This document shows positions 1-47,860 of a stretch of DNA of 64,000 nt, one piece after another. The DNA is from Escherichia phage teqhad, in sequence record NC_054933.1, one strand, 5' to 3'. A program made the position numbers and the translations under genes. Under the pieces are notes generated by a model. That model did no database searches. It was given only the letters and a program-made list of their open reading frames with translations, and was not told the DNA's origin. Numbering within the stretch: position 1 is the first letter of the stretch; each line of letters begins with the position of its first letter.

Positions 1-996
1 AACTGGCCAGAAGGCTTCTCTGGAATTTTAACTCTGTCTGGTGGATTATCATCAAATGCTGAAGTAACAGCAGGAGATTTGATGGAAGCTTGGGACTTCT
101 TTGCTGACCGTGAATCTGTTGATGTTCAATTGTTTATTGCTGGTTCTTGTGCCGGTGAATCTCTTGAAACAGCATCTACTGTCCAAAAACATGTTGTTTC
201 AATTGGTGATGCTCGTCAAGATTGCTTAGTATTGTGCTCACCTCCGCGTGAAACTGTAGTTGGAATTCCTGTAACTCGTGCAGTAGATAATTTAGTTAAC
301 TGGAGAACTGCGGCAGGTTCATACACTGATAATAACTTTAATATCAGTTCAACCTATGCAGCAATCGATGGCAACTACAAATATCAGTATGACAAATATA
401 ATGATGTGAATCGTTGGGTTCCATTAGCAGCTGATATTGCTGGTTTATGCGCAAGAACTGATAACGTATCTCAGACTTGGATGTCTCCAGCTGGTTATAA
501 TCGTGGCCAGATTCTTAACGTTATTAAACTTGCTATTGAAACTCGCCAGGCTCAGCGCGACCGTTTATACCAAGAAGCTATCAACCCAGTAACTGGTACA
601 GGTGGTGATGGTTACGTATTGTATGGTGATAAAACAGCTACTTCTGTTCCTTCTCCATTTGATCGTATTAACGTTCGTCGTCTGTTTAATATGTTGAAAA
701 CGAATATCGGACGTAGTTCAAAATATCGTTTGTTCGAATTAAACAACGCGTTTACTCGTTCATCATTCCGCACAGAAACTGCCCAGTACTTACAGGGAAT
801 TAAAGCTCTCGGTGGAATTTATGAATATCGTGTAGTTTGCGATACAACAAATAACACTCCGTCAGTAATTGATAGAAATGAGTTTGTTGCAACATTCTAC
901 ATCCAACCGGCTAGAAGCATTAACTACATTACCTTAAACTTCGTAGCAACTGCTACTGGTGCAGATTTCGATGAGTTAACTGGTCTTGCAGGTTAA
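1..996 (+). CDS. 18: tail sheath protein gp18, C-terminal part (5' end lies upstream of window)
   Basis: Frame 1 is open from base 1 to TAA at 994-996; directly precedes the tail tube gene as in T4. Confidence 0.9.
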   Translation, partial: NWPEGFSGILTLSGGLSSNAEVTAGDLMEAWDFFADRESVDVQLFIAGSCAGESLETASTVQKHVVSIGDARQDCLVLCSPPRETVVGIPVTRAVDNLVNWRTAAGSYTDNNFNISSTYAAIDGNYKYQYDKYNDVNRWVPLAADIAGLCARTDNVSQTWMSPAGYNRGQILNVIKLAIETRQAQRDRLYQEAINPVTGTGGDGYVLYGDKTATSVPSPFDRINVRRLFNMLKTNIGRSSKYRLFELNNAFTRSSFRTETAQYLQGIKALGGIYEYRVVCDTTNNTPSVIDRNEFVATFYIQPARSINYITLNFVATATGADFDELTGLAG

Positions 997-1636: not shown

Positions 1637-3261
<1,625 letters not shown>

Positions 3262-3262
<1 letters not shown>

Positions 3263-3501
3263 TGGAAGGTTTAATTGAAGCTATTAAATCAAACGACCTC
3301 GTAGCCGCTCGTAAATTATTTGCTGAAGCCATGGCTGCAAGAACGACTGATTTAATCAAAGAAGAAAAAATCGCTATCGCTCGTAATTTCTTAATCGAAG
3401 GTGAAGAACCTGAAGACGAGGATGAAGATGATGACGAAGATAGTGATGATAAAGACGACAAAAAAGACAAAGACTCTGACGAAGACGAGGATGATGAATA
3501 A
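3262..3501 (+). CDS. 67: prohead core protein gp67 with polyacidic C-terminal tail
   Basis: 79 aa, [13 protein letters not shown]..., D/E-rich tail; stop/start overlap with gene 20. Confidence 0.9.
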
Positions 3502-3926: not shown

Positions 3927-4564
3927 TGAATGAACCCCAATTACTAATTGAAACTTGGGGTCAACCTGGCGAAATTATTGATGGCGTACCAATGCTTGAA
4001 TCTCATGATGGAAAAGACTTAGGCTTAAAACCTGGTTTATACATCGAAGGAATATTCATGCAAGCGGAAGTCGTCAATAGAAATAAACGTCTTTATCCAA
4101 AACGTATATTAGAAAAAGCGGTAAAAGACTATATTAATGAGCAAGTTTTAACTAAACAAGCTCTCGGAGAATTAAATCATCCTCCACGCGCTAATGTTGA
4201 CCCGATGCAAGCCGCTATCATTATAGAAGATATGTGGTGGAAAGGAAATGACGTATACGGACGAGCTCGTGTTATTGAAGGTGACCATGGTCCTGGAGAT
4301 AAATTAGCAGCTAATATTCGTGCCGGATGGATTCCAGGAGTTTCTTCTCGTGGATTAGGTTCATTGACTGACACAAATAAAGGTTATCGTATCGTAAACG
4401 AAGGATTCAAATTAACTGTAGGTGTTGATGCAGTATGGGGTCCAAGTGCTCCAGATGCATGGGTAACTCCTAAGGAAATTACCGAATCACAGACGGCGGA
4501 AGCCGATACAAGTGCCGATGACGCCTATATGGCTCTCGCAGAGGCCATGAAAAAAGCGTTATAA
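3926..4564 (+). CDS. 21: prohead core scaffold protease gp21
   Basis: 212 aa, same size and position as T4 gp21. Confidence 0.92.
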   Translation: MNEPQLLIETWGQPGEIIDGVPMLESHDGKDLGLKPGLYIEGIFMQAEVVNRNKRLYPKRILEKAVKDYINEQVLTKQALGELNHPPRANVDPMQAAIIIEDMWWKGNDVYGRARVIEGDHGPGDKLAANIRAGWIPGVSSRGLGSLTDTNKGYRIVNEGFKLTVGVDAVWGPSAPDAWVTPKEITESQTAEADTSADDAYMALAEAMKKAL

Positions 4565-4567
4565 ATA
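4560..4567 (+). promoter_or_regulatory. late promoter TATAAATA (gene 22)
   Basis: Exact TATAAATA overlapping gene 21 stop. Confidence 0.65.
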
Positions 4568-4594
4568 TTATTATCTAAACAACAGGACTACAAA

Positions 4595-5404
4595 ATGCTT
4601 AAAGAACAACTGATTGCCGAAGCGCAGAAAATTGATGCTTCCGTTGCTCTTGATAGTATTTTCGAATCAGTTAATATTTCTCCGGAAGCAAAAGAAACTT
4701 TCGGCACTGTATTCGAAGCTACCGTCAAGCAGCACGCCGTTAAATTAGCTGAATCTCATATCGCTAAAATTGCTGAAAAAGCAGAAGAAGAAGTAGAAAA
4801 AAATAAAGAAGAAGCAGAAGAAAAAGCTGAGAAGAAAATCGCTGAGCAAGCTTCTAAATTCCTTGACCATCTTGCAAAAGAATGGCTCACTGAAAATAAA
4901 TTAGCAGTAGATAAAGGCATTAAAGCCGAACTGTTTGAATCCATGCTTGGTGGATTGAAAGAGCTCTTCGTTGAACACAACGTTGTTGTTCCAGAAGAAT
5001 CAGTTGATGTTGTAGCTGAAATGGAAGAAGAACTGCAAGAACATAAAGAAGAATCAGCTCGTCTGTTCGAAGAACTCAATAAGCGTGACGCATATATCAA
5101 TTATGTGCAGCGTGAAGTGGCATTGAGCGAAAGTACTAAAGATCTGACTGAGTCTCAAAAAGAAAAAGTCTCTGCTCTGGTCGAAGGTATTGATTATTCA
5201 GATGCATTCTCAAGCAAATTGAGTGCCATCGTAGAAATGGTGAAGAAATCTAATAAAGATGAAAGCACTATTACTGAGAGTATAAATACTCCTGATACTG
5301 AAGCAGCCGGACTGAATTTCGTCACTGAAGCTGTAGAAGATAAATCTGCACAAGGTGCAGAAGATATTGTAAGTGTATATGCGAAAGTCGCATCTCGTTT
5401 CTAA
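4595..5404 (+). CDS. 22: prohead core scaffold protein gp22
   Basis: 269 aa, E/K-rich coiled-coil type sequence; late promoter at 4560-4567. Confidence 0.92.
   Translation: MLKEQLIAEAQKIDASVALDSIFESVNISPEAKETFGTVFEATVKQHAVKLAESHIAKIAEKAEEEVEKNKEEAEEKAEKKIAEQASKFLDHLAKEWLTENKLAVDKGIKAELFESMLGGLKELFVEHNVVVPEESVDVVAEMEEELQEHKEESARLFEELNKRDAYINYVQREVALSESTKDLTESQKEKVSALVEGIDYSDAFSSKLSAIVEMVKKSNKDESTITESINTPDTEAAGLNFVTEAVEDKSAQGAEDIVSVYAKVASRF
5281..5288 (+). promoter_or_regulatory. late promoter TATAAATA inside 3' end of gene 22 (gene 23)
   Basis: Exact TATAAATA about 135 nt upstream of gene 23 ATG. Confidence 0.5.
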
Positions 5405-5422
5405 TTTTAAAGGTTAACACAA

Positions 5423-6988
5423 ATGACTATCAAAACTAAAGCTGAACTTTTGAACAAATGGAAGCCATTACTGGAAGGTGAAGGTTTACCGGAAATTGCT
5501 AATAGCAAACAAGCGATTATCGCTAAAATCTTTGAAAACCAGGAAAAAGATTTCCAGACAGCTCCGGAATATAAAGACGAAAAAATTGCTCAGGCGTTCG
5601 GTTCTTTCTTAACAGAAGCTGAAATCGGTGGTGACCACGGTTACAACGCTACTAACATCGCTGCTGGTCAGACTTCTGGCGCAGTAACTCAGATTGGCCC
5701 AGCTGTTATGGGTATGGTACGTCGTGCTATTCCTAACCTGATTGCTTTCGATATTTGCGGTGTTCAGCCGATGAACAGCCCGACTGGCCAGGTATTCGCA
5801 CTGCGCGCAGTATATGGTAAAGACCCAATCGCTTCCGGTGCTAAAGAAGCATTCCACCCAATGTATGGTCCAGATGCAATGTTCTCTGGTCAGGGTGCTG
5901 CTAAGAAATTCCCAGCTCTGGCTGCTAGTACTGAAACTGTTGTAGGTGATATCTATACTCACTTCTTCCAGGAAACCGGTACTGTATATCTGCAAGCTTC
6001 AGCTGTTGTGACAATTGATTCTAGTGCAAATGATGCAGCTAAATTAGATGCTGAAATTAAGAAACAAATGGAAGCAGGTGTACTGGTAGAAATCGCTGAA
6101 GGTATGGCTACTTCTATCGCTGAACTTCAGGAAGGTTTCAACGGTTCTACCGATAACCCATGGAATGAAATGGGCTTCCGTATCGATAAACAAGTTATCG
6201 AAGCTAAATCTCGTCAGCTGAAAGCTGCTTACTCTATCGAATTAGCACAAGACCTCCGCGCTGTTCACGGTATGGATGCTGATGCTGAACTGTCTGGTAT
6301 TCTGGCTACCGAAATCATGCTGGAAATCAACCGTGAAGTTGTTGATTGGATTAACTACTCAGCTCAGGTTGGTAAATCTGGTATGACCCTGACTCCGGGT
6401 TCTAAAGCTGGTGTGTTTGACTTCCAGGATCCAATTGATATTCGTGGTGCTCGCTGGGCGGGTGAATCCTTTAAAGCTCTGTTGTTCCAGATTGACAAAG
6501 AAGCAGTTGAAATTGCTCGTCAGACCGGTCGTGGTGAAGGTAACTTCATTATCGCTTCCCGTAACGTAGTTAACGTTCTGGCTTCAGTTGATACTGGCAT
6601 TTCTTATGCTGCACAGGGTCTGGCTACCGGCTTTAACACTGATACTACCAAGTCAGTATTTGCTGGTGTTCTGGGTGGTAAATACCGTGTATATATCGAC
6701 CAGTATGCTAAACAGGATTATTTCACTGTAGGTTATAAAGGTCCGAACGAAATGGATGCTGGTATTTACTACGCTCCATATGTAGCTCTGACTCCGCTGC
6801 GTGGTTCCGATCCGAAGAACTTCCAACCAGTAATGGGATTCAAAACTCGTTACGGTATCGGTATCAACCCATTTGCAGAATCCGCTGCTCAGGCTCCGGC
6901 TTCTCGCATCCAGAGCGGTATGCCTTCTATTCTGAATAGCCTTGGTAAAAACGCTTACTTCCGCCGTGTATATGTTAAAGGTATCTAA
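5423..6988 (+). CDS. 23: major capsid protein gp23
   Basis: 521 aa; strong codon bias typical of a highly expressed gene; terminator hairpin downstream. Confidence 0.95.
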   Translation: MTIKTKAELLNKWKPLLEGEGLPEIANSKQAIIAKIFENQEKDFQTAPEYKDEKIAQAFGSFLTEAEIGGDHGYNATNIAAGQTSGAVTQIGPAVMGMVRRAIPNLIAFDICGVQPMNSPTGQVFALRAVYGKDPIASGAKEAFHPMYGPDAMFSGQGAAKKFPALAASTETVVGDIYTHFFQETGTVYLQASAVVTIDSSANDAAKLDAEIKKQMEAGVLVEIAEGMATSIAELQEGFNGSTDNPWNEMGFRIDKQVIEAKSRQLKAAYSIELAQDLRAVHGMDADAELSGILATEIMLEINREVVDWINYSAQVGKSGMTLTPGSKAGVFDFQDPIDIRGARWAGESFKALLFQIDKEAVEIARQTGRGEGNFIIASRNVVNVLASVDTGISYAAQGLATGFNTDTTKSVFAGVLGGKYRVYIDQYAKQDYFTVGYKGPNEMDAGIYYAPYVALTPLRGSDPKNFQPVMGFKTRYGIGINPFAESAAQAPASRIQSGMPSILNSLGKNAYFRRVYVKGI

Positions 6989-40919: not shown

Positions 40920-43184
40920 TCATAATTTACAGGATGAACAATCTTCAGCTTTTGGAGTTTCTATTTCATAATCATCAGTACCAGAACCATCACGGGTATT
41001 ATGATAATAGAAATTTTTTCCGCCAAAATACCAAAAATACAAAAGGTCATCAATCATTATTGACATTGGAACCTTTCCTTTTGGAAAAATCTGTGGGTCA
41101 TAATATGTATTCGCTGAAGCTGATTGACATACCCATTTCAGCATAATAGCTACCTGCGTAAGATAAGGTTTATTACCTTTCTTAGCTAATTTCCATGTAT
41201 AATCATAGAGGTCTATGTTATGCTCAATATTGGGCACGACTTGATTAAAGGAGCCCTCTTTTGATTCTTTAACAGAGACTGGTCCACGTGGAGGCTCGAT
41301 ACCGTTTGTACTGTTAGAAACTTGGGAAGATGACTCACATGGCATAAGTGCTGATAATGTGCTATTACGGATGCCAAAGAGCTTAAGGTCTTCCCGCAGC
41401 GACGACCAGTCACAAACGTATTTTGGAGCTGCGATTTGGTCAATCTTTTTATTGTACCAGTCGATAGGTAATTCGCCTCGAGACCAACGAGTGTCTGAAT
41501 AATATTCACAAGGTCCTTTTTCTTTGGCGAGCTTAATGGATGCTTTAATGAGTCCATACTGTAATCTCTCAAATAGTTCATGTGTTAAATCGTTAGCATC
41601 TTCATAAGAAGCAAAGTTACTTGCCAGCCAAGCTGCATAGTTAGTAACACCTACACCAAGGTTTCGACGCTTTTTAGCTTTTTCTGCTTCAGGAACTGGA
41701 TATCCTTGGTAATCCAAAAGATTATCAAGAGCACGAACTTGAACTTCTGCTAATTCATTAATTTTATCTTGGTCTTGCCAATCGAAGTTATCCAGCACAA
41801 ATGCAGATAACGTGCACAATCCAATTTCAGCATCAGGGCTATTCACATCATTTGTTGGAATAGCAATTTCACAGCACAAGTTACTCTGACGAATAGGTGC
41901 CTTTTCACGAATAAACGGAGTATAGTTATTCGTATTATCAATGAACTGCACATAAATCCTTGCTGTTCCTGAGCGTTCAGTCATGAGCAATTCAAATAGT
42001 TCACGGGCTTTAATGCGCTTTTTACGAATATTAGGGTCTTTTTCTGCTGCTTCGTATAATTCACGGAAACGGTCTTGGTCTTTAAAATAAGAATAATAAA
42101 GCTCTCCACCCATTTCATGTGGACTGAACAAAGTAATGTAATCGTTCTTTCCAAAACGTTCCATCATTAGATCATTCAGTTGAACACCATAATCCATATG
42201 ACGAATGCGGTTTTCTTCTACACCTTTGTTATTTTTCAAAACGAGAAGATTTTCAACTTCCAAATGCCAAATAGGATAATAAGCAGTAGCAGCGCCGCCA
42301 CGAATTCCACCCTGTGAGCATGATTTAACAGCAGTCTGAAAATGTTTCCAAAAAGGAATAACACCGGTATGGCGTACTTCACCCATGCCAATCTTAGAAC
42401 CTTCAGCACGAATCATACCAACGTTAATACCAATTCCAGCGCGTTTAGAGATATATTCAACAATTGAAGCGGAAGCCTTATTGATAGACTTTAATGAATC
42501 ACCTGCCTCAATAACAACACATGAACTAAACTGTCGAGTCGGAGTACGGCAACCAGCCATAATAGGAGTTGGCAATGAAATCTGTCGAGTAGATACTGCT
42601 TCATAAAAACGGATAACGTGTTTTAATCTATCAACAGGTTCATCTTGATGCAATGCCATTCCAATAGTCATAAATGCAAACTGTGGAGTTTCATAAATTT
42701 GACCAGTGGTTTTATCTTTAACTAGATATTTTTCTTTTAATTGCATCGCCCCGGAATAAGTAAATTCCATATCCCGCTCGTGCTTAATTTTTGATTCTAA
42801 AAATGTAATTTCTTCTGCTGAATATTTTGACAATAATTCAGGGTCGTATTTACCTTCATTTACACAGTAAGAAATATGGTCAATAAATGAACGTGGTTCA
42901 TACTGCCCATAAACATGCTTACGAAGAGCGAACATTAGACAACGTGCAGCTACATATTGATAATCAGGCTCTTCAACCGAAATAGAATTCGCAGCGGCCT
43001 TAATGACAATAGTCTGAATATCATCAGTTGTCATTCCATCACGGAGATAAGATTTAATATTTTCATATAATTCATAAGGATCTACCGATGTTCCTTCAGC
43101 TGCCCAAGATAAAACTTTAATAATTTTTTGTGGGTCAAAGCTCTGAGAAACACCACTACTTTTGATAACATTAATTAATTGCAT
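40920..43184 (-). CDS. nrdA: ribonucleotide reductase large subunit
   Basis: 754 aa. Confidence 0.93.
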   Translation of the reverse strand: MQLINVIKSSGVSQSFDPQKIIKVLSWAAEGTSVDPYELYENIKSYLRDGMTTDDIQTIVIKAAANSISVEEPDYQYVAARCLMFALRKHVYGQYEPRSFIDHISYCVNEGKYDPELLSKYSAEEITFLESKIKHERDMEFTYSGAMQLKEKYLVKDKTTGQIYETPQFAFMTIGMALHQDEPVDRLKHVIRFYEAVSTRQISLPTPIMAGCRTPTRQFSSCVVIEAGDSLKSINKASASIVEYISKRAGIGINVGMIRAEGSKIGMGEVRHTGVIPFWKHFQTAVKSCSQGGIRGGAATAYYPIWHLEVENLLVLKNNKGVEENRIRHMDYGVQLNDLMMERFGKNDYITLFSPHEMGGELYYSYFKDQDRFRELYEAAEKDPNIRKKRIKARELFELLMTERSGTARIYVQFIDNTNNYTPFIREKAPIRQSNLCCEIAIPTNDVNSPDAEIGLCTLSAFVLDNFDWQDQDKINELAEVQVRALDNLLDYQGYPVPEAEKAKKRRNLGVGVTNYAAWLASNFASYEDANDLTHELFERLQYGLIKASIKLAKEKGPCEYYSDTRWSRGELPIDWYNKKIDQIAAPKYVCDWSSLREDLKLFGIRNSTLSALMPCESSSQVSNSTNGIEPPRGPVSVKESKEGSFNQVVPNIEHNIDLYDYTWKLAKKGNKPYLTQVAIMLKWVCQSASANTYYDPQIFPKGKVPMSIMIDDLLYFWYFGGKNFYYHNTRDGSGTDDYEIETPKAEDCSSCKL

Positions 43185-43741: not shown

Positions 43742-44602
43742 TTATACCGCCATTTTTCCTTTAATTGGCAGATGAGATACATAGTTGTTAAGAACAAAAT
43801 TATGAGGCTTTGCAAATTGACTCAACCAAAATACCTGCGATTCTGTGTCCCATTCATCAAATTCATCTGGAAATTTTAATTGTAATTCGCATAAATCCAT
43901 AGGTTCACGACGCAAAATTTCTTTACATTGTTCTACGTGATTCATATAGATATGAGTATTACCACCAGAAAATATCAAATCTCCCGGAATAAGATTACAC
44001 ATCTTAGCTACAATATGAACTAACGTAGCATATGATGCAATATTAAATGGAAGACCGAGGAAAACATCTACCGAACGTTGATACCACTGCAAATCTAAAT
44101 AGCCATTACGCACATTAAACTGATAGAACATATGACAAGGAGGTAATGCCATATATTTAAGTTCAGCTGGATTCCACGCAGAAACGATTTGACGTCGATC
44201 AGTTGGTAATTTTTTAATACGATCAATAGTTTCAACTAATTGATCCACACCACCGAAATCACGCCATTGTTTACCATATATAGGACCAAGTTCACCACTA
44301 TGATATCCTAGGTCTTTAGCCTGGTTTTCATAGTTATCGTCCCAAACTGTTTTGCCTTGGATTAACGAATCGTGTTGAATTAATCGTAAATCATTAACAT
44401 TTGTGCTTCCTGATAAAAACCATATTAGCTCAGCAATGCATGCATTCCAGGCGAGCTTCTTAGTTGTTACTGCAGGAAAACCTTTGGTTAAATCCCAACG
44501 CAATTTAGTACCGAACAGAGCAATTGTTCCTGTGCCCGTTCGGTCATCGGTTTCATAGCCATTTTCAAAAATGTCTTTAATTAAATCTTGGTATTGTTTC
44601 AT
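43742..44602 (-). CDS. td: thymidylate synthase, uninterrupted
   Basis: 286 aa continuous ORF, no intron. Confidence 0.93.
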   Translation of the reverse strand: MKQYQDLIKDIFENGYETDDRTGTGTIALFGTKLRWDLTKGFPAVTTKKLAWNACIAELIWFLSGSTNVNDLRLIQHDSLIQGKTVWDDNYENQAKDLGYHSGELGPIYGKQWRDFGGVDQLVETIDRIKKLPTDRRQIVSAWNPAELKYMALPPCHMFYQFNVRNGYLDLQWYQRSVDVFLGLPFNIASYATLVHIVAKMCNLIPGDLIFSGGNTHIYMNHVEQCKEILRREPMDLCELQLKFPDEFDEWDTESQVFWLSQFAKPHNFVLNNYVSHLPIKGKMAV

Positions 44603-44647
44603 TTAGTACCTTATATAAATTATAATACATTTTATGAAGCTAAATAA

Positions 44648-45007
44648 TCAATACGGTTTAGCATCAAATTTTCTCTCAATTTCAGGTGTGAAATATAATT
44701 CTTTACCGCGTTTGGAAAAGCGACCAATAATATGATAATTATTCTCATCAAACGTAATATTACCAATATCCATAGCTTTCAACCAAATATCGATATTTCT
44801 ATCCAGCTTTATGTCAAAATTCCAATACGGAGAACTATTACCGAAAATACTGCAAGCGGATTCAGTGAAACAGCTACTATAAATCTTGTCTTTAGGAACT
44901 ACTAATTGATAGACACCTTTAATAAACTGAGGACCCTGCCATTTAGGTTGTTTCACGTCTTTTTCTAATAGAATAGGGTAATAATTAAAATTCATATTTT
45001 CCGCCAC
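44648..45007 (-). CDS. hypothetical protein inserted between frd and td
   Basis: 119 aa from GTG at 45007, or 115 aa from ATG at 44995; no recognisable motif. Confidence 0.55.
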   Translation of the reverse strand: MAENMNFNYYPILLEKDVKQPKWQGPQFIKGVYQLVVPKDKIYSSCFTESACSIFGNSSPYWNFDIKLDRNIDIWLKAMDIGNITFDENNYHIIGRFSKRGKELYFTPEIERKFDAKPY

Positions 45008-45015
45008 GCGTTATT

Positions 45016-45842
<827 letters not shown>

Positions 45843-46951: not shown

Positions 46952-47860
46952 TTAAAGGTCATTCAAAAGGTCATCCAGGTCCGTGTCATCAGCACTAGAT
47001 GAACTGCCAGAGCTTGAGCTCATAAAATCATCTTCAGTTTTTGTATTGAAGTCATCAACATTGAATGCATCCAAATCATCAGCAACTTTATCAGCTTTCT
47101 TAGCAGCAGTTGCAGCGGCACCGCCCATCACAGCAGTTCCCATAACTTGACCAAATTTAGTGCTCAGTTCTTCAAACGATTTGAATTTATCTTTAGAAGT
47201 CATTTCAGAAAGGTCAACCATTTGTTCGAACAGTTCTTTCTGGAAAGATTCATCGTCAATGTTTGGAATCGCAGATTGATTCAGGAATTTAGATTCGTCG
47301 TAGTTACTAAATCCAGAAACCTGTTTAACTTTCAGTACAAAGTTAGCACCTTCCCACGGACAAGTTACATCAACCGGAGTTTCACCCATTTCAACATCAA
47401 CCGCAATCATCGCGTTGATTTTATCCCAGATTTTCTTACCGAAACGATATTTAAATACTTTACCTTCGTTTTCTGGAGCAGCTGGGTCTTTTACAACAAG
47501 AATGTTAGCCCAGTAAGAAGTTTTACGTTTAACAAGACTGTACTCTTTGTTGTCAGTGTTGTACAGATCATTTTTACTGATGTATTGACATACTGGGCAA
47601 GAATCGTAATCACCGTGGGTAGATGAACAGTTTTCAATATACCATTTACCATTTTTCTTGAAACCGTGATTTACAAGAATTGCGAATGGTGCTTGTTCAT
47701 CATTTTTAGACGGAAGAAAACGAATTACTGCTTGACCGTTACCCGCATTGTCGAGTTTCAGTTTCCACTCGCCTTTATCTTCAGAAGAAAAACCACCTTT
47801 ATTTCCAGCCAGTTTAGCCATTTGTGCAGCGAGTTCAGCAGTAGATTTACGTTTAAACAT
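46952..47860 (-). CDS. 32: single-stranded DNA-binding protein gp32
   Basis: 302 aa; acidic Ser-rich C-terminus; AU-rich translational operator upstream. Confidence 0.95.

Follow-up and report, generated by a model that had tools for sequence, protein, structure and literature searches.

A strongly constrained small gene, probably an old resident, between frd and td of T-even phages

Is the small open reading frame (ORF) between frd and td of Escherichia phage teqhad cargo inserted at a conserved gene junction, a chance frame, or a gene that has long had its place there? In T4 the two genes meet in an overlapping stop/start (ATGA; frd at 5110..5691 of the T4 locus, td end at 5113). The initial annotation gave this overlap correctly, and took the extra frame to be an insertion, mobile or accessory, wedged into the junction. 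We examined the locus in the window, which is the whole 64,000-nucleotide stretch of sequence record NC_054933.1, and compared it with its counterparts in T4-like phages.

The reading frame and its coding status

The frame occupies 44648..45007 on the minus strand and specifies 119 residues from a GTG at 45007 or 115 from an ATG at 44995. It lies downstream of frd (dihydrofolate reductase, 45016..45597, minus strand), which probably belongs to the same transcription unit, and upstream of td (thymidylate synthase, 43742..44602, minus strand), which is one uninterrupted 286-aa frame. After the frd stop, 8 nt precede the GTG, the ORF beginning at the ninth, and 20 nt precede the ATG. The gap between the ORF stop and the td ATG is 45 nt. 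The ORF list and the sequence bear out the position between the two genes and, in essence, the spacing first described. The small gene thus shares the strand of frd and td and is tightly packed with both. It is part of a T-even type gene 32–nrdA cluster, which runs on the minus strand throughout: gene 32 (46952..47860), homologs of frd.3, frd.2 and frd.1 between gene 32 and frd, nrdA.2 and nrdA.1 downstream of td, and nrdA (40920..43184). The cluster also holds a second small ORF that T4 lacks (81 aa, 45597..45842, minus strand), which is RB32ORF231c in the T2 and T6 records and is placed between frd.1 and frd, abutting the frd start. The equivalent T4 site is a 71-nt spacer only (frd end 5691, frd.1 start 5763), and the frd.1 protein flanking this ORF is 100% identical to the T4 frd.1 protein.

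Of the two starts, the ATG at 44995 is more likely to be used, because relatives are annotated from the same ATG and the N-terminal extension is not conserved in homologs. This candidate extension, which applies if the GTG is the start, consists of four codons at 44996..45007 on the minus strand (GTG GCG GAA AAT, encoding MAEN). From the equivalent ATG, the annotated CDS measures 348 nt in T2, T6, AugustSocin and PHB12 and 351 nt in EP01. The favoured CDS of the window, 115 codons and a stop, is 44648..44995 (minus strand), as judged from the ORF list, the sequence, the phrog_1928 match and dN/dS. A weak Shine–Dalgarno-like GGCGGA precedes the ATG within 44996..45007 (minus strand); EP01 reads GGCAGA there. 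The small gene would be transcribed with frd and td from the minus strand, and its translation would begin at ATG 44995, about 20 nt past the frd stop, possibly by re-initiation.

The 45-nt spacer between the small gene and td (44603..44647, minus strand) carries the td Shine–Dalgarno AAGG and a promoter-like TTGATT-18-TATTAT. It is not conserved, being 15 nt long in PHB12. Taken together with the stop codon of the small gene (44603..44651, minus strand), it contains this sigma-70-like pair and a GCTTCA that resembles the T4 middle-promoter (MotA) box. The promoter-like stretch is missing from the PHB12 spacer, so any promoter there is not conserved. A promoter and terminator scan of the region gave sites that are not enriched over shuffles, with no terminator-like site between frd, the small gene and td on the minus strand, and an Rfam scan gave a single meaningless match below threshold.

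The gene is already catalogued. Its product matches phrog_1928 with E = 1.6e-35 (residues 8–115 against profile positions 2–125 of 126), and the same profile is matched by all 42 of the 42 family representatives. It is RB32ORF229c of T2, T6, RB14, RB32, RB51, ECML-134, wV7 and others: the amino-acid identity is 97–99%, the length and the frd–td position are the same, and there is no material difference. Under these entries every source names it hypothetical protein, and phrog_1928 is listed as of unknown function, with no Pfam entry and no solved structure; our literature searches found no paper on the ORF. A search of the window with the family profile found no paralog.

By its pattern of substitution, the ORF truly codes for protein, and purifying selection on it is very strong, tighter than that on frd. 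Among six Tequatrovirus/PHB12 alleles, dN/dS (Nei–Gojobori) is 0.00–0.05 for the ORF and 0.05–0.25 for frd in the same pairs. The ORFs of the window and PHB12 differ by 35 synonymous and 10 nonsynonymous changes (dS ~1.0), and the T2, T6 and AugustSocin proteins are identical though dS is 0.18–0.29. The window protein differs from that of T2 and T6 at one residue, V14 against A14 in the 115-aa numbering from the ATG, which is residue 18 in the 119-aa numbering used below for W23 and the other named conserved residues. Synonymous divergence of the ORF, 0.07–1.0, is similar to or above that of frd in the same pairs, 0.11–0.54. The motifs QxKW, GIY, GN and IIGRFxKxGxxxxFxP are kept in homologs at 26–44% identity and even at 21–27%.

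These data leave a negligible probability for a chance ORF or a non-functional leftover between two real genes. Such a reading could appeal to the lack of a known domain, the weak Shine–Dalgarno and the absence of the ORF from the reference phage T4. However, it is refuted by the dN/dS of 0.00–0.05 over up to 35 synonymous changes, by homologs in distant genera that keep the motifs down to 21–27% identity, and by an AlphaFold model that is confident (pLDDT 89). The ORF is far beyond chance, since it matches phrog_1928, has homologs in 578 phage records and shows this degree of constraint.

Alleles of the frd–td slot and their history

To describe the slot we call this ORF's family A, its diverged tandem paralog A', and an unrelated gene of 67–68 aa B. 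In a megablast search with the junction, the ORF is covered in 354 records at 90–98% identity, including T6, RB51, RB68, wV7 and ECML-134. By tblastn, its homologs occur in 578 phage records at one place each, 361 at 90% identity or more and 217 below 60%. Within Tequatrovirus, the A-only allele, which is that of the window, T2 and T6, accounts for about 361 of 526 records (~68%), and the B-only allele for 135 records at 90% identity or more (~26%). The empty allele, the direct frd/td fusion of the T4 type, was counted with a 50-nt probe, full coverage of which requires a contiguous junction of the T4 type; it is present in 32 records (~6%), about half of them T4 isolates or T4-like laboratory strains. 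These counts add up to 528, against 526 records whose frd is at least 80% identical to that of the window, so the three alleles account for the whole genus. The arrangement of the reference phage is thereby put in proportion: at this junction T4 is the exception among its relatives.

The B allele is well illustrated by Paracelsus, in which the gene was left unannotated (451..654 of its locus). The 67-aa product begins MSNKLKVKDVPNAM. At both ends the gene shares bases with its neighbours, its start codon with the frd stop (ATGA) and its stop codon with the td start (TAATG). Its counterpart in CIP9, at 67% identity, is CIP9_059, which comes third in the slot there (3188..3394 of the CIP9 locus). 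We had considered whether this allele of ~205 bp is a deletion derivative of the ORF, and rejected the idea, as the sequence is unrelated and the 67-aa protein is homologous to the third CIP9 gene. Homologs of B at ~43% identity are also found in Phapecoctavirus phages, outside the T4 family.

In five other genera of Tevenvirinae, homologs of A at 26–44% identity follow frd directly, and A' is found in four of them. The order is frd-A-A'-B-td in Kanagawavirus (CIP9), frd-A-td in Jiaodavirus (Mineola), and frd-A-A'-td in Moonvirus (Moon), Kagamiyamavirus (EcS1) and Gelderlandvirus (S16). The slot can thus hold up to three small genes, and at most junctions in the slots of these other genera the stop and start codons overlap. 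Across genera, identity to the window proteins runs at 26–44% in A, rises to 45–53% in Frd and is highest, at 68–78%, in Td. The junction is a direct frd/td fusion in Mosigvirus (p000v) and in Dhakavirus (VR5). PHB12, which is listed as a Mosigvirus, has an A gene with 93% amino-acid identity to that of the window and a Frd with only 83.5%, whereas Mosigvirus p000v has the direct fusion; PHB12 is either taxonomically mislabelled or a mosaic genome.

From this comparison of sequences, A is very probably an old, constrained and non-mobile resident of the frd–td slot in enterobacterial T4-like phages and not a recent insertion. Synteny in five genera, a single place in every record and an ORF dS close to that of frd argue for long residence and divergence together with the flanking genes. 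The data do not support the picture of mobile or inserted cargo at a conserved junction: A is the majority state, its position is syntenic in five genera, it has one locus, and its dS is at least that of frd. The word accessory keeps its sense of a non-universal and dispensable gene, and loses that of mobile cargo. The initial annotation had looked to synteny at this junction to tell rare cargo from a common gene with a housekeeping role; the ORF is present in most close T4 relatives, but no known housekeeping role goes with it.

The distribution of the alleles, with its polarity read from occurrence and not from a rooted tree, indicates long residence followed by repeated loss or replacement. 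Since the slot is empty in the closest sister genera of the sample, Mosigvirus (p000v) and Dhakavirus (VR5), the ancestor of Tequatrovirus may also have re-acquired A by recombination. Slot alleles could be exchanged when recombination takes place within the frd and td genes on either side.

For T4 the boundaries of the difference are exact. The T4 junction equals the window junction minus 417 bp between AAATGAAA repeats, and the flanking repeats match at 10 of 11 positions. The left direct repeat, AAATGAAATAA (45011..45021, minus strand), holds the frd stop TGA (45018..45016), and the right one, AAATGAAACAA (44594..44604, minus strand), holds the td start codon (44602..44600); the copies are 417 bp apart, and the T4 frd/td fusion has a single copy. 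The T4 junction may have arisen by short-homology deletion between the repeats, where the direction, a loss, is read from the distribution of the alleles. As evidence for this mechanism the repeat is weak, because it is partly forced by the contexts of the frd stop and the td start. The left repeat is conserved in the A-allele phages PHB12, EP01 and T6. It contains a two-codon mini-ORF (ATG AAA TAA) in frame with the small gene, which could serve as a termination/re-initiation relay from frd into the small gene.

One homolog departs from the usual form of the family. In P0013, a Klebsiella-type protein of 195 aa from NCBI, the last 35 residues match the C-terminal end of P0007, the A protein of the Jiaodavirus type, in all but one position, and they are joined to an unrelated N-terminal part of 160 aa that has no Pfam match, as in a fusion or truncation product. 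The sequence suggests that an insertion or rearrangement disrupted the A gene in this one genome.

The homing-endonuclease label

AugustSocin is one of several BASEL records that label the protein 'putative homing endonuclease'. According to the methods of BASEL, annotation was comparative, and the label was given without domain evidence. We compared this label with the results of domain searches. In Pfam, the ORF protein has no match at E ≤ 10 and its 42 relatives have no recurrent family at E ≤ 1, and NCBIfam has no match for the ORF protein. That the ORF carries no nuclease motif, as first noted, is confirmed by the Pfam, NCBIfam and PADLOC searches, all without a match. The residues invariant in the family are W23, G95, K99 and G101, and no R, E, N or H is conserved. 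Among the homing-endonuclease types GIY-YIG, HNH, LAGLIDADG and PD-(D/E)XK, no nuclease fold was recognized in the ORF protein. The segment GVYQL...IYS was considered as a GIY...YIG pair and rejected, as only G31 and Y33 are conserved and catalytic residues are lacking. The label in these GenBank records is without domain support.

It could still be argued that the ORF is a homing endonuclease gene, or the degenerate remnant of one, carried as mobile cargo at the frd/td junction. The junction is occupied in some relatives and empty in others, as such an element would leave it, and free-standing homing endonucleases abound in this genome family; a short direct repeat flanks the indel, and the BASEL label and the superficial likeness of GVYQL...IYS to GIY...YIG point the same way. 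Against this stand the missing Pfam match and catalytic-type conserved residues, the one fixed locus per genome and a dS equal to that of the flanks. An element that had spread horizontally in recent times would be much less diverged than its flanks, and the ORF is not (dS 0.07–1.0, against 0.11–0.54 for frd). Nor is there an association with the td intron and I-TevI. We consider a homing element very improbable.

The td intron was compared with the ORF across records. The window td has neither a group I intron nor I-TevI, like T2 and unlike T4 and T6; intron-less td records are recognized by coverage of ~64% of the T4 probe. The ORF and the intron occur together in T6, ECML-134 and ECO4, the ORF without the intron in T2 and the window, and the intron without the ORF in T4. 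The idea that absence of the ORF is tied to the td group I intron and I-TevI by co-conversion was rejected, since the two assort independently among Tequatrovirus records. In the EcS1 locus, a gene annotated as a homing endonuclease (4015..4773) runs on the opposite strand into the 3' end of td. Other genera thus do have true mobile endonuclease genes near this operon, and the ORF contrasts with them.

Predicted product and candidate roles

The AlphaFold model of the protein, built from a 42-sequence alignment, has a pLDDT of 89.2 and a pTM of 0.83. Strands are predicted at residues 10–16, 31–38, 42–44, 52–54 and 66–68, followed by a helix at 72–80 and strands at 84–86, 90–100 and 103–108. The model is a predicted β-barrel with one helix in the order β1-β2-β3-α-β4-β5, which is that of the OB-fold, and we describe it as OB-like. 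The conserved aromatic and basic residues are W23, Y33, F97, K99 and F106, and the pI ranges across the family from ~6.6 to 9.3. Matches of the model in BFVD are uncharacterized proteins of T4-like phages only, and no matching fold was found among solved structures. When solved structures were searched by sequence, neither the protein itself nor two profiles gave anything above noise (E ≥ 0.04). When 1.84 billion representatives were searched exhaustively with a profile, 42 clusters were obtained. Apart from two short fragments and two repetitive proteins judged spurious, the matches are standalone proteins of 95–139 aa. P0040 and P0044, considered as clues to the domain type, proved spurious, their scores being sums of short-motif matches in internally repeated proteins.

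We propose that the product is a soluble single-domain protein of 115 aa, predicted to be OB-like and without a catalytic motif, that would act as a non-enzymatic binding or adaptor protein, useful under some conditions and dispensable. The ligand might be a nucleic acid, which we propose because of the OB-like topology and the conserved W23, Y33, F97, K99 and F106, or else a conserved protein of phage or host, with a possible link to the enzymes of thymidylate synthesis. The gene is dispensable in nature, since T4, Mosigvirus, Dhakavirus and the B-allele phages are without A. On the strength of the model, the binding role is a tentative assignment. For the account as a whole, the resident gene and the binding role taken together, our blended confidence is somewhat better than even.

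The same patchy presence among close relatives could be that of an anti-defence or host-takeover protein, a small early protein that neutralizes an immunity factor or redirects a host protein and is retained in phages that encounter the host factor and lost in those that do not, as in T4, Mosigvirus and Dhakavirus. An unrelated small gene can fill the slot, tandem paralogs have diversified in several genera, and A has diverged across genera faster than frd and td. A small, non-enzymatic protein with an unmatched predicted fold would also suit this role. However, the protein is almost invariant within Tequatrovirus (dN/dS 0.00–0.05), unlike the diversifying pattern common in counter-defence genes, and the gene sits in a nucleotide-metabolism operon and not in the usual variable early-gene clusters. 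It has no PADLOC family at E ≤ 1, in a collection that covers defence and not anti-defence proteins. We regard this role as conceivable but doubtful.

The position of the gene suggests another partner. As a dedicated accessory subunit or regulator of thymidylate synthesis, the protein would bind dihydrofolate reductase, thymidylate synthase or the td mRNA and tune dTMP in the dNTP complex. In every genus examined that carries A, it lies between frd and td. The stop/start overlaps, which are frequent, suggest coupled translation, and the strong purifying selection suggests a conserved partner; the predicted OB-like topology is compatible with binding of RNA or protein. On the other side, T4, Mosigvirus and Dhakavirus manage without A. 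Frd is nearly identical with or without the gene (AugustSocin against T4, dN 0.009), which gives no sign of co-adaptation, and the unrelated 67-aa gene fills the slot in 135 records, so the position may reflect history and not function. With respect to the T4-type dNTP-synthesizing complex (Frd, Td, NrdAB and gp42), only co-location of A in the operon is shown. A dedicated role of this kind is unlikely. In its boldest form, and a long shot on the basis of a model, phrog_1928 would be a previously unseen small-protein fold, retained between frd and td throughout the history of enterobacterial T4-like phages, that binds the enzymes or the mRNA and so tunes either thymidylate synthesis or the expression of td. 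If that is true, a regulatory layer has been overlooked because T4 happens to have deleted the gene.

We retain the tentative binding-protein assignment for the resident gene. Three features set it apart from other uncharacterized small genes of T-even phages: constraint tighter than that of frd, one slot in at least six genera, and a confident model without a match. The ORF is missing from T4 and has therefore never been reached by the genetics of that phage. As T2 and T6 carry it naturally and T4 does not, deletion and knock-in are simple.

Finally, we compared the gene with known systems. The candidate fold relatives are the OB-fold nucleic-acid-binding domains (S1/Rrp40, RPA/Teb1/Cdc13 and HIN), and any likeness of the ORF product to these is a predicted one. 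With the seg, mob and I-TevI types of free-standing homing endonuclease gene in T-even phages, the ORF shares presence/absence polymorphism at a junction of conserved genes, but it differs in having no nuclease motif or fold, a single fixed locus, ancient cross-genus synteny and strong purifying selection. The small ORFs of the T4 gene 32–nrdA region (frd.1, frd.2, frd.3, nrdA.1 and nrdA.2) resemble it in being small, tightly packed on the same strand and without an assigned function, and they are likewise interleaved with nucleotide-metabolism genes and variably present among T4 relatives. They have no sequence relationship to the ORF, which, unlike those genes, is absent from T4.
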